Part shown: piece by piece, positions 49,115 through 60,678 of the stretch
How the letters are laid out: each line of letters opens with the position of its first letter
Numbering within the stretch: the stretch's first letter is position 1
Sequence record: PV654397.1
Strand: one strand, 5' to 3'
Source: Escherichia phage WPEC5
Length of the DNA: 64,000 bases
The notes under the pieces: generated by a model
Told to the model about the DNA's origin: nothing
The model's database searches: none
The model's input: only the letters and a program-made list of their open reading frames with translations
Translations under genes and position numbers: made by a program

Positions 49115-49186
49115 ATCAGGGGAGTTTTTCGTATGTCTTACTCCTGGACTACTTAACGGGGTTACTTATTTCGTTCCCCGTCCTGA
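49115..49186 (-). ncRNA. Copy 1 of a conserved ~75-nt structured leader between tandem promoters
   Basis: Minus strand GGACGGGGAACGAAATAAGTAACcCCGTTAAGTAGtCCAGGAGTAAGaCAtACGAAAAACTCCCC (differs from copy 2 at a few positions), two predicted hairpins; repeated at 60.6 kb and diverged at 57.2 kb. Confidence 0.35.
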
Positions 49187-49277
49187 TGTAAAACATTATA
49201 CTTGATTCTAAGTACAATGCAAGTACTTTTTTAAAAATAGTTTTCAGTACTTGATAGTACTAGCCACCAGCAAACAA

Positions 49278-49365
49278 TAGATACATTTATGCACCCTGTG
49301 GGCTGATTTGTTTCTATGCGTATATAATAGCAAAGGGACTGACCGGAGTCAATCCCTTTTTCAAA
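49278..49365. repeat. Copy c of the ~100-bp intergenic element
   Basis: GCACCCTGTGGGCT...TATATAATAGCAAAGGGACTGACCGGAGTCAATCCC then T-run. Confidence 0.6.
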
Positions 49366-49370
49366 TATTT

Positions 49371-49520
49371 TTAAACTTCTTTCGGGTTGCGATATGTGAT
49401 AGCGTTCGGGTACATTTGTTTAATGTTATTCCATGCCTGGTTAACATTATAACCACTTGATCGAATCAGTTGGTTATTACCGACACCTTGAAACACTACT
49501 TCAAATAAGAATTCTTTCAT
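49371..49520 (-). CDS. Small ORF (49 aa), translationally coupled
   Basis: ATG overlaps the TGA of the upstream gene (ATGA); below the track length cutoff. Confidence 0.35.
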   Translation of the reverse strand: MKEFLFEVVFQGVGNNQLIRSSGYNVNQAWNNIKQMYPNAITYRNPKEV

Positions 49521-49690
49521 GCTTTCACCTCTCGATCTGCTTTGCCTTTACGCCAGGCTGTTGCTAATTGTTCGCGTTGCCATAAGTCGAGTGATACGTA
49601 AAGTTTTGCATTATCACCCTTCGGATATTCGCCAGTAGTACCAATCCGATAAAACAGATCTTTCAGTACTGTTAATTCTACCTGGACCAT
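49517..49690 (-). CDS. Hypothetical small protein
   Basis: Start moved to internal Met (MVQVELT). Confidence 0.5.
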   Translation of the reverse strand: MVQVELTVLKDLFYRIGTTGEYPKGDNAKLYVSLDLWQREQLATAWRKGKADREVKA

Positions 49691-49776
49691 TATACTTTCC
49701 TCTTTGTTCGGAGGGGAACTATTCCCCTTCCGATATAAAACATTATACACTTTATTCAGTACTGTGCAAGTACTTT

Positions 49777-49989
49777 TTAATCTTTCAGCCAATGATCCTG
49801 AATGAATTTTTCACCGGAACCTTGCTGCATTGATTGTAACAGACGTTCGCGATGAGCGGCGGCGAATTGCTCAGTACTATGCGTTACACCTGGTTGATAT
49901 CTGGATTCACCATTTGGGGCGATGTATTGTACATCCCACGGTTTTTCGTTAGTATCAGACCATTTACGAACGATTAGTTGACCTTGCAT
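49777..49989 (-). CDS. Hypothetical small protein
   Basis: Minus ORF preceded by a GGGGAGAATCATTTCTCCCC hairpin. Confidence 0.5.
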   Translation of the reverse strand: MQGQLIVRKWSDTNEKPWDVQYIAPNGESRYQPGVTHSTEQFAAAHRERLLQSMQQGSGEKFIQDHWLKD

Positions 49990-50062
49990 TTTTCTTTCCT
50001 CTTAGTGGGGAGAATCATTTCTCCCCTTCATGTAAACTATTATACAGTACTGGATTGCATTG

Positions 50063-50359
50063 TCAATATTTTATTACTTCTTCGTATAATTTATCTAGTA
50101 CTTCGTATATTTCATTTAATGCACTTGATTTAAAAGCTGATAAGCTATACCCTTCATCTTTTAAAAATTTAATAAATTCAGTTGATGACGTGAATCCGAT
50201 CGTTTCATGTGGGAATGAAAAATCAAACGTTCCTTGCATTACGCATTTAAATTCATCAGGTGAAAACGTGTTACCTTTTTCCCGTCGCATAGTGAAAAAT
50301 GTAACACCTGGAATAAACTTAAGCTGTTCCCGTGATTCAACTTCAATAACTGTTTTCAT
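50063..50359 (-). CDS. Hypothetical small protein
   Basis: Minus ORF with promoter, hairpin and AGAGG Shine-Dalgarno upstream. Confidence 0.55.
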   Translation of the reverse strand: MKTVIEVESREQLKFIPGVTFFTMRREKGNTFSPDEFKCVMQGTFDFSFPHETIGFTSSTEFIKFLKDEGYSLSAFKSSALNEIYEVLDKLYEEVIKY

Positions 50360-50374
50360 ATATTACCTCTTAGT

Positions 50375-50434
50375 GGGGAGAATCATTTCTCCCCTTCATG
50401 TAAACTATTATACAGTACTATAATCTATTGTCAA
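50375..50434 (-). promoter_or_regulatory. Promoter-hairpin cassette (TTGACA, 16-nt spacer, TATAAT, hairpin)
   Basis: Minus strand -35 at 50429-50434, -10 at 50407-50412, hairpin GGGGAGAAtcatTTCTCCCC at 50375-50394. Confidence 0.55.
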
Positions 50435-50442
50435 ATACTTTT

Positions 50443-50631
50443 TTACAGTTTATGAATTAATTCTTTATCTAAGCGATAGCGTACATTATTAATGGTAACA
50501 GCATTATTTTTAATGCTACGCTGTACGGGTCCACCAGCAATAACAAACGTTGCTTTATTGCCCCGAACAATGATAGCACTTCCAGGATTACCGAAATCAT
50601 CTTGTACTAAAATACTTGATAAGTTTTCCAT
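50443..50631 (-). CDS. Hypothetical small protein
   Basis: Minus ORF. Confidence 0.5.
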   Translation of the reverse strand: MENLSSILVQDDFGNPGSAIIVRGNKATFVIAGGPVQRSIKNNAVTINNVRYRLDKELIHKL

Positions 50632-58494: not shown

Positions 58495-58708
58495 TAAGGT
58501 ATAAACAGAAGTCACCTTTATTTGCTACGCCGCCAGTGTAACGCGAGGAATAGTTAGAAACGTCCTGGACTTCTGCTATTACCAGGGTATCATCATTCAA
58601 TTCGTCGCAGAAGCAAACGGCTGGATCTTGTACGCCGATTTTGTCAGCATGTTCCCGCATAGATTTAACCAGTGCTTCCAGTTGGGAAAGAGTAGTGATA
58701 TTAGCCAT
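58487..58708 (-). CDS. Hypothetical small protein
   Basis: Start moved to internal Met (MANITTL). Confidence 0.5.
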   Translation of the reverse strand: MANITTLSQLEALVKSMREHADKIGVQDPAVCFCDELNDDTLVIAEVQDVSNYSSRYTGGVANKGDFCLYLTK

Positions 58709-58792
58709 TGTATTTTCCTCATTACCAGGGAGAACCATTTCTCCCTTTGATGTAAACCATTATACAGTACTGAAAACTAATTGCAAGTACTT

Positions 58793-58981
58793 TTAATTAA
58801 ATTCCATAAAATCATTTTCAACGTGCACAACAATCTGATTATTTTTAAAGGACGCAGAAAACTCTATACAATCATAAACCGCTTTTTCTGTTACCAGACT
58901 ATGAGCACCAATCGGATTAATTGGGGATTGAATTGTTTCAATCTCGTTACCTTGTTCATTAACGATTAAAATATTAAACAT
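58793..58981 (-). CDS. Hypothetical small protein
   Basis: Minus ORF. Confidence 0.45.
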   Translation of the reverse strand: MFNILIVNEQGNEIETIQSPINPIGAHSLVTEKAVYDCIEFSASFKNNQIVVHVENDFMEFN

Positions 58982-59020
58982 TGCCGTTACTCCTGGATAG
59001 TGTTAACTCGATATAAAGTA

Positions 59021-59203
59021 TTATACGCCTTTATTGCTTAGTGTCCAGTGATCACGCATCATACGCCCCGCACGATCCCAGCTAGTAGGCATGGGTATGC
59101 CTTGCAATTCGTTAGGGGAGATCTCGACCTCGATCCCTACATCAATAACAGTCATTCCAGCTTTCGCAGCTTGCTCGCGGATAACCTCAGATAATGTTGT
59201 CAT
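59021..59203 (-). CDS. Hypothetical small protein
   Basis: Minus ORF. Confidence 0.45.
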   Translation of the reverse strand: MTTLSEVIREQAAKAGMTVIDVGIEVEISPNELQGIPMPTSWDRAGRMMRDHWTLSNKGV

Positions 59204-59277
59204 GATTAAAGCTCCTGGATAGTGTTAACTCGATATAAAGTATTATACAGTACTGAAAACTAATTGCAAGTACTTTT

Positions 59278-59538
59278 TCAATATTGTTTGTCGTCGTCTT
59301 CCTCGATGAATTGACCGACGAAATGATCTACTTTCGCTTTGAGGCTTTTATAATCTTCTTCTACTTCCTTTAAACGTTCCTGGTAGTATTCCAGTGCTTG
59401 AATATACGCCGCCTCAGCAGTTTTTGCACGCATAGCTAAATTCATTCCACGCGTTTCATCAAATAGCCAATAACCATCGGTGCAATGACTGATAGATAAT
59501 GATTTACTTAGTGCTGTATAGCTAATTACTTTACTCAT
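59278..59538 (-). CDS. Hypothetical small protein
   Basis: Minus ORF. Confidence 0.5.
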   Translation of the reverse strand: MSKVISYTALSKSLSISHCTDGYWLFDETRGMNLAMRAKTAEAAYIQALEYYQERLKEVEEDYKSLKAKVDHFVGQFIEEDDDKQY

Positions 59539-59595
59539 TAGATAACCCTCAGTAAAGGCGGGAACTATTACCCGCCATTATCTCAGTACTGAATA

Positions 59596-59835
59596 TTACA
59601 TTCCAACCATTGCAGCACGGATCGCAGTAGTGCTATACTTAAAGCCGTCCGGCGTTGTAGTAGTACCGTTGGCTTTTAATCTGCGGTACATACATTCCGC
59701 AGCAATATCTTTAGTTCTACTTTGTGCGATGCAACTTTGAGCAAGCCGATACAATGACTCACCGTTATTAATCCAAAGGCTTACATTCCAATGAGTTTTG
59801 TTTTTGTGACCGTTGTAAGTTTTAGTACTAGCCAT
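59596..59835 (-). CDS. Hypothetical small protein (paralog of 61638..61877)
   Basis: Shares HKNKTHWNVSLWINN...TPDGFKYSTTAIRAAMVGM; start moved to internal Met. Confidence 0.55.
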   Translation of the reverse strand: MASTKTYNGHKNKTHWNVSLWINNGESLYRLAQSCIAQSRTKDIAAECMYRRLKANGTTTTPDGFKYSTTAIRAAMVGM

Positions 59836-59925
59836 TTTTAAATCCTCGTTTGAGCGGGGAACCACTCCCCGCCTCGATATAAAGTATTATACGCTTTTAA
59901 ACTTAGTTTGCAAGTACTTTTTAAA

Positions 59926-60537
59926 TTAATATTCGATTGATTCCACTACGCCATCAATAACATTGAATTGATACTCGTTACCCTCAATCAGTGCCGTAAT
60001 GTTTTCAGTAGTGAATTGATCCTCATATGCATTCTCTAAATCACGGTACAACTTGCGGGACAATTCACGAATAGTTTCAGTGAGTAGTTCCTCAAGCTCA
60101 TTAACTAACGTTTCTTGTTTTGCGGTTAAATCAGTGTAAGCCGATTCAATGTACCCGCTTACCGTGTTTTCGTGTGCGTAGCGAGAGTGTGAACGTTCTA
60201 CACTCATTGCCAAATCATCTTCATTCAACAAGTGACGGATAGAACGATATTTCGTTAACGCTTTAATCTTGCGTAAAAACTTCACTGCGTCCACGCTGTC
60301 AGTACTGATTGATGCACCGTCACCCTGGGACCAAAAACCGCTGAATTGTATTTCAGCTTCATTAATGCCATATTCCGGTAGTACTGTTTCTTTATAGTAT
60401 TCAATTTCACTTTCAGAAAAATAATTGTCGTTTGAGTTTTTTTCACGTTCCCGAACCAGTTCGATAGCTGACGTTTGTTGTTCTGCGTTCAATTCAGAAA
60501 AAGCCATAACATAAGTAGTAGTAGTGATAGTTTTCAT
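59926..60537 (-). CDS. Hypothetical protein (203 aa)
   Basis: Minus ORF with tandem promoters and a structured leader upstream. Confidence 0.55.
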   Translation of the reverse strand: MKTITTTTYVMAFSELNAEQQTSAIELVREREKNSNDNYFSESEIEYYKETVLPEYGINEAEIQFSGFWSQGDGASISTDSVDAVKFLRKIKALTKYRSIRHLLNEDDLAMSVERSHSRYAHENTVSGYIESAYTDLTAKQETLVNELEELLTETIRELSRKLYRDLENAYEDQFTTENITALIEGNEYQFNVIDGVVESIEY

Positions 60538-60604
60538 TTTGTAACCCTCATTCAGTAGTTGATGTAAGTATTATACGCTTTTAAAAACATTTGTCAAACT
60601 ATTT

Positions 60605-60678
60605 TATCAGGGGAGTTTTTCGTGTGCCTTACTCCTGGGCTACTTAACGGGAAGTTACTTATTTCGTTCCCCGTCCTG
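60605..60678 (-). ncRNA. Copy 2 of the conserved ~75-nt structured leader
   Basis: Near-identical to 49115-49186; lies between two tandem minus promoters. Confidence 0.35.

Follow-up and report, generated by a model that had tools for sequence, protein, structure and literature searches.

A pseudoknotted leader RNA domain shared by early promoters of an Escherichia jumbo phage and the T7 A1-A2 segment

Few viruses have been studied as thoroughly as bacteriophage T7, whose A1 promoter and leader serve as standard tools of transcription research. In T4-type phages, promoter-early stem-loops (PeSL), which are reportedly simple stem-loops, are thought to be recombination substrates; units of early promoter and structured leader lie there beside small variable open reading frames (ORFs) and are shuffled between genes and phages. 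The rrn and lambda nut leaders are built as boxB-boxA-boxC, with boxB a simple hairpin. Small aptamers such as preQ1-I and SAM-II follow the topology S1-L1-S2-L2-S1'-L3-S2', with an A-rich L3, invariant loops and covarying stems. In phage HK022, the putL RNA of ~73 nucleotides (nt) pairs from +3 onwards, is compacted by a minor-groove triplex and needs no protein, and put RNA suppresses pausing and termination in cis via the zinc-binding domain of the RNA polymerase beta' subunit (PMC9378689). Here we analyze a 64,000-nt stretch of DNA from Escherichia phage WPEC5 (PV654397.1; hereafter the window, to which coordinates refer unless another genome is named), in which three promoters are each followed by a structured leader element of 73-75 nt whose core recurs between the T7 promoters A1 and A2.

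The window holds exactly three copies of the element, all on the minus strand: two long copies at 60680-60606 (60k) and 49187-49115 (49k), and a short one at 57252-57180 (57k). A degenerate core pattern matches with 0 mismatches at 49123-49155, 57203-57235 and 60614-60646, against an expectation of 0.00 from 100 shuffles, and a covariance model run over the window with its filters off scores the three copies at 51-57 bits and the next match at 11 bits. Both searches bear out the three minus-strand loci at which a first-pass annotation, made from the letters of this DNA, had placed a repeated leader; its spans needed correction at the ends, as the element begins at the predicted +1 of the upstream promoter and ends with the 3' strand that pairs with this 5' end. 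Comparison with relatives shows the three copies to be one conserved, pseudoknotted RNA domain, which by its sequence context would lie at or near the 5' end of immediate-early sigma70-type transcripts.

Folded together by RNAalifold, nine long-form copies give a three-way junction of helices P1 (AUCAGG/CCUGAU), P2 (ACGGGG...CCCCGU) and P3 (GGAG...CUCC), with P1 closing the domain by joining the extreme 5' end of the element to its 3' end. The junction J between P2 and P3 reads UAAGUAG-N-C, and its strand UAAGUAG lies directly 3' of a helix in all three window copies. The loop of P3 reads UAA-G-N'-C-RN-ACGAAAAA, and its GN'C pairs with the GNC of the junction in an H-type pseudoknot of 3 base pairs (bp). 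The two hairpins described earlier are thus part of the picture: P3 is found in all copies and P2 in the two long copies only, and RNAalifold and covariation add the closing helix and the pseudoknot. Minimum-free-energy folding of single copies yields z-scores of -2.7, -1.6 and -0.3; thermodynamics alone would not support the element and, because single-sequence folding is unimpressive, the case for structure rests on comparison with relatives.

For this comparison 94 instances of the core, 39 of them distinct, were fitted to the core model, and the pair cells of P3 and the pseudoknot were counted. All 272 of 272 cells hold standard pairs, as against 78.8% in shuffles (0 of 500), and the covariation score over the 39 distinct sequences is 0.459 as against 0.085; shifting the partner by 1-3 columns reduces pairing to 17-34%. 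None of the search patterns constrained the middle pair of the pseudoknot, N:N'; the G and C on either side of N were fixed by pattern. The N:N' pair is A:U in 27 distinct sequences, U:A in 7, C:G in 4 and G:C in 1, with 0 unpaired, and three of these states occur in the window itself (C:G in 60k, U:A in 49k and A:U in 57k). P3 is 100% paired with compensatory changes at three of its four pairs, its variants comprising CCUG/CAGG (T7), GGAG/CUCC (49k and 60k), CCAG/CUGG (57k), CUUG/CAAG, UCAG/CUGA and CCUG/CGGG. In a metagenome control, 35/35 matches lying in T7-like or jumbo-phage leaders pair at N:N', as against Watson-Crick pairs in 10/35 chance matches, which is near the 25% expected by chance; none of the chance loci included in the model search scored at E<0.001. 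Several helices contain G-U pairs, and the orientation of the element always follows that of the promoter. Since such pairs exist on the transcribed-sense strand only, their tolerance indicates that selection acts on the sense-strand RNA. Compensatory base changes across relatives were the check proposed for the earlier suggestion of a structured leader RNA, and their abundance supports it; a regulatory role of the leader is hypothetical.

The same junction strand, P3, pseudoknot and A-rich loop are found in the T7 A1-A2 leader, at T7 nt 536-593, with the A1 start (498) on one side and the A2 -35 hexamer (589-594) on the other. The T7 domain lies behind a separate 5' hairpin and is closed by a pseudoknot between the hairpin loop and the 3' side (GUCAA:UUGAC), whereas the window copies are closed by the helix between 5' end and 3' side. 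A covariance model built from T7-like sequences alone (n=31), with no jumbo-phage sequence in training, recovers the window copies at E-values of 9e-6, 4e-5 and 6e-4, which are rough on account of a short calibration, with the next match at 5.5; it aligns the P2 hairpin of the window with the T7 hairpin. By this sequence comparison the window element is homologous to the T7 A1-A2 domain, and the argument is not circular. The T7-type long-range helix connects the loop of the hairpin just upstream of UAAGUAG with the segment that follows P3; it reaches 99.4% pairing and shows compensatory changes at every one of its five pairs (GUCAA:UUGAC, GUCGGU:ACCGAC, GUCAUC:GAUGAC, GAUUAG:CUAAUC, GUCAC:GUGAC and GCUAA:UUAGC), and because it adds to the GNC:GN'C pseudoknot, the T7 version is a double pseudoknot. 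In T7 and many of its relatives the 3' strand of this helix is the RNA copy of the A2 -35 (UUGAC, 589-593), pairing with loop GUCAA (540-545). In K1F-like phages the helix partner is a -35-like GAUGAC and the true -35 lies ~15 nt further on, so the pairing was kept while the promoter moved. The three repeats are the version, in a jumbo phage, of a widespread leader RNA to which the T7 A1-A2 segment also belongs, a link that is invisible from the window alone.

Queried by blastn with the T7 segment, GenBank yields 486 records of T7-like phages. The hosts named in them are nearly all Enterobacterales (Escherichia, Klebsiella, Salmonella, Yersinia, Enterobacter, Citrobacter, Serratia and Erwinia), the exceptions being an Aeromonas phage and a single record with the label Enterococcus. 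Scanning IMG/VR by pattern likewise leads to T7-like contigs of ~40 kb, T7 itself included. The long form is found by blastn in 44 records. Asteriusvirus-type phages carry two long-form copies per genome, or four where the record holds the terminal repeat twice, and the same form occurs at ~90% identity in unrelated phages of ~145 kb, namely Justusliebigvirus muut and outra and Vequintavirinae A73 and others, again in the order promoter, element, promoter and with different downstream genes except in muut. The 57k form is also present in other jumbo phages, namely Salmonella phage 7t3, Klebsiella phage fENko-Kae01, Erwinia phage Hallingskeid and EJP2, where it precedes a gene homologous to the one behind 57k, at only 31-43% local amino-acid identity in distant jumbo phages. 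In Pantoea phage LIMEzero (860-960) and contig L023 (4112-4200), a short form is followed by a boxA-like sequence and the first gene, with no promoter between. A single upstream promoter is seen in these two, and the boxA-like sequence, consensus CGCTCTTTAACAATCTGG in L023 and a variant of it in LIMEzero, lies ~10-30 nt after the element and is followed by a GU-rich stretch; the T7 boxA lies farther down the same leader. The covariance model also picked up a long form that the pattern did not, with UGAGUAG for UAAGUAG, on the metagenome contig OERM01000014.1 (8605-8679). Across these phage groups, which appear to share little beyond host range, the unpaired nucleotides are nearly invariant in the aligned sequences.

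Judged by Rfam 15 and the literature open to searching, this pseudoknotted leader RNA is apparently undescribed. Rfam 15 has no match on the element in the window at the gathering threshold or at E<=10, nor any at E<=5 on six T7-like loci, T7 being one of them. Literature on T7 A1-A2 RNA, T7 boxA and leader function, jumbo-phage early leaders and phage RNA motifs held nothing relevant, subscription-only older T7 papers aside. We also considered a host origin or mimicry of a host RNA and rejected it: a strict pattern scan of 185,579 species genomes returned one contig of a metagenome-assembled genome, with T7-like leader flanks, and one chance match in Pseudomonas, and blastn against E. coli genomes and plasmids gave no match to the element. 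Likenesses to segments of 16S rRNA, the pistol ribozyme linker, ToxI and the rrn leader that had been seen by eye were dropped, as they involve positions variable in the family or lack Rfam backing.

In all window copies 7 nt separate the -10 hexamer from A-U-C-A-(G/A)-G, the geometry and nearly the initial sequence of T7 A1 (AUCGAG, nt 498), and because of this match we take +1 to be A60680, A49187 and A57252. The promoters directly upstream match the consensus at 10-11 of 12 positions, which would place the element within the first ~110 nt of a sigma70-promoter transcript. A perfect TTGACA-16-TATAAT promoter directly follows each long copy, while the 57k copy is followed by a 9/12 match (TTGATA-17-TAAACT) and then a ribosome-binding site (RBS). 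The arrangement between tandem promoters described in the first-pass annotation therefore holds for two of the three copies and fails for 57k, which is effectively promoter, element, RBS and gene, because its downstream promoter is merely that weak match. The features of the three loci are as follows.

60688..60715, minus strand: 60k upstream promoter (promoter P1), TTGCAA-16-TATAAT; consensus scan
60606..60680, minus strand: 60k element, 75 nt; pattern, covariance model and RNAalifold
60680-60675 and 60611-60606, minus strand: 60k closing helix P1, 5' strand AUCAGG and 3' strand CCUGAU
60674-60647, minus strand: 60k P2 hairpin, followed by J UAAGUA at 60646-60641
60640-60638 and 60628-60626, minus strand: 60k pseudoknot, 5' strand GCC and 3' strand GGC; covariation
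60635-60632 and 60615-60612, minus strand: 60k P3, GGAG with CUCC, and A-rich L3 at 60625-60616; covariation
60570..60597, minus strand: 60k gene-proximal promoter (promoter P2), TTGACA-16-TATAAT, 12/12; consensus scan
59926..60537, minus strand: 60k downstream gene, 203 amino acids (aa), phrog_5162
49195..49222, minus strand: 49k upstream promoter (promoter P1), TTGCAT-16-TATAAT, in repeat family D1/D2
49115..49187, minus strand: 49k element, 73 nt; pattern, covariance model and RNAalifold
49187-49182 and 49120-49115, minus strand: 49k closing helix P1, 5' and 3' strands
49181-49156, minus strand: 49k P2 hairpin, with J from 49155
49149-49147 and 49137-49135, minus strand: 49k pseudoknot, GUC with GAC; P3 GGAG at 49144-49141 with CUCC at 49124-49121
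49079..49106, minus strand: 49k gene-proximal promoter (promoter P2), TTGACA-16-TATAAT, 12/12; consensus scan
48770..49045, minus strand: 49k downstream gene, 91 aa, 94.5% identity to muut_139 (Justusliebigvirus)
57260..57287, minus strand: 57k promoter, TTGACA-16-TAGAAT, 11/12; consensus scan
57180..57252, minus strand: 57k element, short form without P2 hairpin; pattern and covariance model
57252-57244, minus strand: 57k 5' strand AUCAAGACG, with J from 57235 and 3' strands CGUC at 57197-57194 and UUUGAU at 57185-57180
57229-57227 and 57217-57215, minus strand: 57k pseudoknot, GAC with GUC; P3 CCAG at 57224-57221 with CUGG at 57204-57201
56654..57136, minus strand: 57k downstream gene, 160 aa, phrog_27871

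An element of this kind might also be a coding sequence, an independent small RNA gene or a site in double-stranded DNA. The earlier statement that it contains no ORF is right in substance: one mechanical ORF covers the 57k copy (57159-57287, 42 aa), and we reject it as not credible because it begins at the TTG of the -35 hexamer. GenBank records such as OR699181, PQ330092 and PV611058 annotate a 'hypothetical protein' across the element, and as the sole ORF over a window copy starts at that -35 TTG, these calls are probably spurious. The small RNA gene, which the first-pass annotation had held possible, was set aside too, as neither a terminator-like site nor any other signal for a 3' end separates the element from the promoter or gene that follows it. 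As to its third option, a protein-binding site in DNA, the element could be an UP element or operator of the downstream promoter, and an A-rich tract does lie just upstream of the A2 -35 in T7, where the 3' pairing strand is the -35 hexamer itself. However, the distance to the next -35 varies from ~7 to ~40 nt among relatives, EJP2, the 57k locus, LIMEzero and L023 have no downstream promoter, and covariation through helices that tolerate G-U pairs is strand-specific, which together make such a site extremely improbable.

The genes behind the three copies are unrelated to one another, as noted earlier, and give no functional hint. A block of element, downstream promoter and 91-aa gene is shared between phage muut (1501-1918) and the window (48770-49187), which by sequence is a recent exchange between the 350-kb jumbo phage and the 146-kb phage muut. 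The element takes along the -10/+1 part of the promoter before it and the UP/-35 part of the promoter behind it, and promoter spacers differ between copies, a combination that fits recombination within the repeated promoter consensus. Judged by sequence, the element and its flanking promoter halves thus behave as a cassette that recombines between genes and unrelated phages, and this explains how three unrelated genes, and unrelated phages, come to share it. The units of T4-type phages resemble it in layout and in being shuffled, but the element differs from them in its selected tertiary fold and its reach across phage families. One could suppose from this mobility, with promoter halves conserved and spacers differing as the cassette moves between genes and phages, that the element is a relic, a stretch of old leader carried along by repeated promoter cassettes without a function of its own. 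Against this, multiple independent compensatory changes at four helices, together with the complete pairing in the 39 distinct sequences, show selection on the fold. Furthermore, the 57k-type core and its Hallingskeid counterpart agree at ~88% over 56 nt, as against 31-43% local amino-acid identity for the gene behind them, and the RNA core is, on these sequences, far more conserved than the adjacent protein. We therefore rate the relic very improbable, and even in combination with the DNA site it would claim but a small share of the probability.

What the domain does may be approached through the systems outlined at the outset. We propose, with low confidence and at a rough probability of 0.35, that it serves as a leader that acts in cis and engages the transcription machinery of the host in a put-like manner. 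The domain would fold co-transcriptionally behind the polymerase that made it and, in cis, would use its invariant unpaired nucleotides to bind the Nus complex or RNA polymerase itself; we infer that these nucleotides contact something conserved in the host. Polymerases from the outermost promoter would then gain processivity and resist pauses and terminators, an action like that of HK022 put RNA, though the element stands outside that family. The likeness to putL and putR extends to a length of ~70-75 nt, a place directly after an early sigma70 promoter, inclusion of the 5'-most nucleotides in the fold, a compact fold with tertiary pairing and a phage of the same host (PMC9378689). Circumstantial support comes from the start of the element at the predicted +1 and its length, which match the position and size of putL; from LIMEzero and L023, where the element lies just upstream of the boxA-like sequence and so holds the position that boxB has relative to boxA in rrn leaders; from the unpaired nucleotides, which stay nearly invariant in phage groups that seem to have little in common but host range; and from the hosts listed for the carrier phages, almost all of them Enterobacterales. 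On the other hand, put has two long stems and a triplex where the window element has an H-type pseudoknot, and antitermination is demonstrated for put and hypothesised only for the window element. The window copies, unlike rrn and nut leaders, lack a nearby boxA, and no N-like protein is implied.

Several observations weigh against the put-like proposal or the structure on which it builds. The element resembles the early region of HK022 with putL and putR in neither sequence nor structure: run on HK022 nt 24000-32000, the immunity region between erf and O, the core model scores no more than 7.4 bits (E 0.4), and homology to put was rejected on this ground. No boxA (GCTCTTTAACAA) with <=2 mismatches is found near any copy, and the total count in the window is at chance level. 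At 57k, the element leads a unit of a single gene with terminators at its bounds, which leaves antitermination without an evident purpose. The element stands behind only 3 of the ~26 early promoters of its array, and the transcription start sites are predictions. Within the set of nine long-form copies used for RNAalifold there are zero compensatory changes. The sequence of closing helix P1 is invariant within the long form, and its per-sequence test against shuffles is not significant. For this reason, we rate P1 as no more than likely; its strands keep a constant position in the fold, with sequences that differ between subtypes (AUCAGG/CCUGAU, AUCAA/UUGAU, GCGGC/GUCGC, CGGC/GCCG, AUCGAA/UUCGGU and ACCGAA/UUCGGU). 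Finally, the conservation of J and L3 (UAAGUAG and ACGAA) is in part imposed by the search patterns; the variants found by BLAST or by the model differ little (CAAGUAG, UGAGUAG, ACGAACAA, ACGAAAGA and ACGAAUAA).

A broader claim than the put-like one falls a little short of even odds, namely that the domain is a new class of functional RNA that binds a host macromolecule or a small ligand, lies hidden in the first T7 transcript and has spread horizontally among T7-like, rV5-like and jumbo coliphages because of a benefit to very early infection. Such an RNA might be a put-independent processive antiterminator acting on RNA polymerase, a decoy for a defence or RNA-decay factor, or a metabolite binder.

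The setting of the three copies bears on a different function in cis. From 48.5 to 61.5 kb the window is 94-98% identical to Asteriusvirus-type (121Q/PBECO4/G17-like) jumbo E. coli phage genomes, and on its minus strand small genes, each driven by a near-consensus sigma70 promoter, form an array from ~43 to 64 kb. At least 26 near-consensus promoter repeats with A/T-rich tracts upstream (repeat families D1-D7) lie in 43200-63650 on this strand, and most of them lead into a T7-A1-like initial transcribed sequence, ATCGAGAGGG, and then a 5' hairpin, GGGGAAC..GTTCCCC (family D3), directly before the RBS. In sequence, the early region looks like a long run of T7-A1-type promoter cassettes. The element could accordingly protect the 5' end of the transcript, its fold hiding the 5' triphosphate and offering a compact obstacle that slows decay by RppH and RNase E, so that it would act in cis on stability and not on polymerase. 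5'-terminal stem-loops reportedly stabilize E. coli mRNAs, and the first nucleotides of the transcript are paired in every subtype (in the window copies by P1, starting at +1; in T7 by the 5' hairpin, starting at +2). The other array promoters mostly lead simple 5' hairpins, which the P2 hairpin of the long copies resembles, as it does the A1 hairpin of T7 and phiA1122. Yet a plain hairpin would be enough, and the jumbo phage uses plain hairpins elsewhere; the pseudoknot and the near-invariant unpaired UAAGUAG and ACGAAAAA across unrelated phages are left unexplained, and the T7 domain begins at +39, behind a separate 5' hairpin. We consider end protection an unlikely account of the domain, though a close rival of the put-like proposal.

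A trans-acting role would fit the mobility and the genomic placement of the element. In the records of vB_Ec-M-J and fENko-Kae01 it is part of the direct terminal repeat as annotated, at 3.6-3.7 kb from the left end, with transcription running inward. As a decoy or sponge, RNA made in bulk from the strongest and earliest promoters would neutralize a host RNA-binding factor or an RNA-sensing defence protein, with release in T7 through cleavage of the leader RNA by RNase III. The inward transcription from a terminal repeat near the genome end, the cassette-like behavior, the invariant loops, a core ~90% identical in phage groups that apparently share little beyond host range and the failure to find a host copy that the element would merely duplicate all favor such a role. 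The jumbo phage, however, provides no terminator or processing signal for a discrete RNA, and in the bacterial genomes and plasmids searched there is no similar RNA, for example a type III antitoxin to mimic; no target is indicated. The decoy, including its RNase III step, is unlikely in our estimate, though again a close rival of the put-like proposal.

With its covarying helices, invariant junction and loop, A-rich third loop and closing helix, the domain also recalls small H-type pseudoknots such as preQ1-I and SAM-II, with which it shares the topology, and might be a riboswitch-like aptamer sensing a ligand or a small self-cleaving ribozyme of an undescribed class. It differs from these in lacking any Rfam 15 match even at E=5-10, an expression platform (no terminator and no RBS overlap) and any indicated ligand, and the host range of the carrier phages is narrow for a universal one. 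In decades of in vitro transcription, no self-cleavage of the T7 A1 leader is known to have been reported. This interpretation is improbable in our estimate.

A covariation-supported double-pseudoknot RNA in the T7 leader would reveal a gap in textbook knowledge. That the domain is common to T7-like, jumbo and rV5-like phages, and far better conserved than the neighboring proteins, points to a shared need in the first seconds of enterobacterial infection. In practice, the motif marks immediate-early promoters, and likely the entering end, of uncharacterised phage genomes, and it flags spurious 'hypothetical protein' calls.

The window contains other repeats beside the element. A unit of ~95 nt occurs four times (43742-43834, 46002-46094, 49280-49372 and 53297-53389), with a related piece at ~60850-60885. 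It comprises a 12-bp hairpin, AAAGGGATTGACTCCGGTCAGTCCCTTT, which encloses a TTGACT -35 and is followed by TATTAT, with compensatory changes in the 53k copy; downstream of TATTAT, CCCAYAGGGTGC..TGTATCTAT is conserved. On the plus strand a T-run follows the hairpin, and the sequence may thus serve in terminating antisense transcription. One copy of the unit stands just upstream of the 49k element and its CCCATAGGGTGC part upstream of the 60k element, so that both long copies lie behind a third, outer promoter. Farther along, from 10800 to 42100, the window holds many diverged direct-repeat families (D8-D13, D15 and D20) with units of 36-300 nt at a spacing of ~200-900 nt, whose sequences suggest that paralogous small genes form tandem arrays ahead of the early region.

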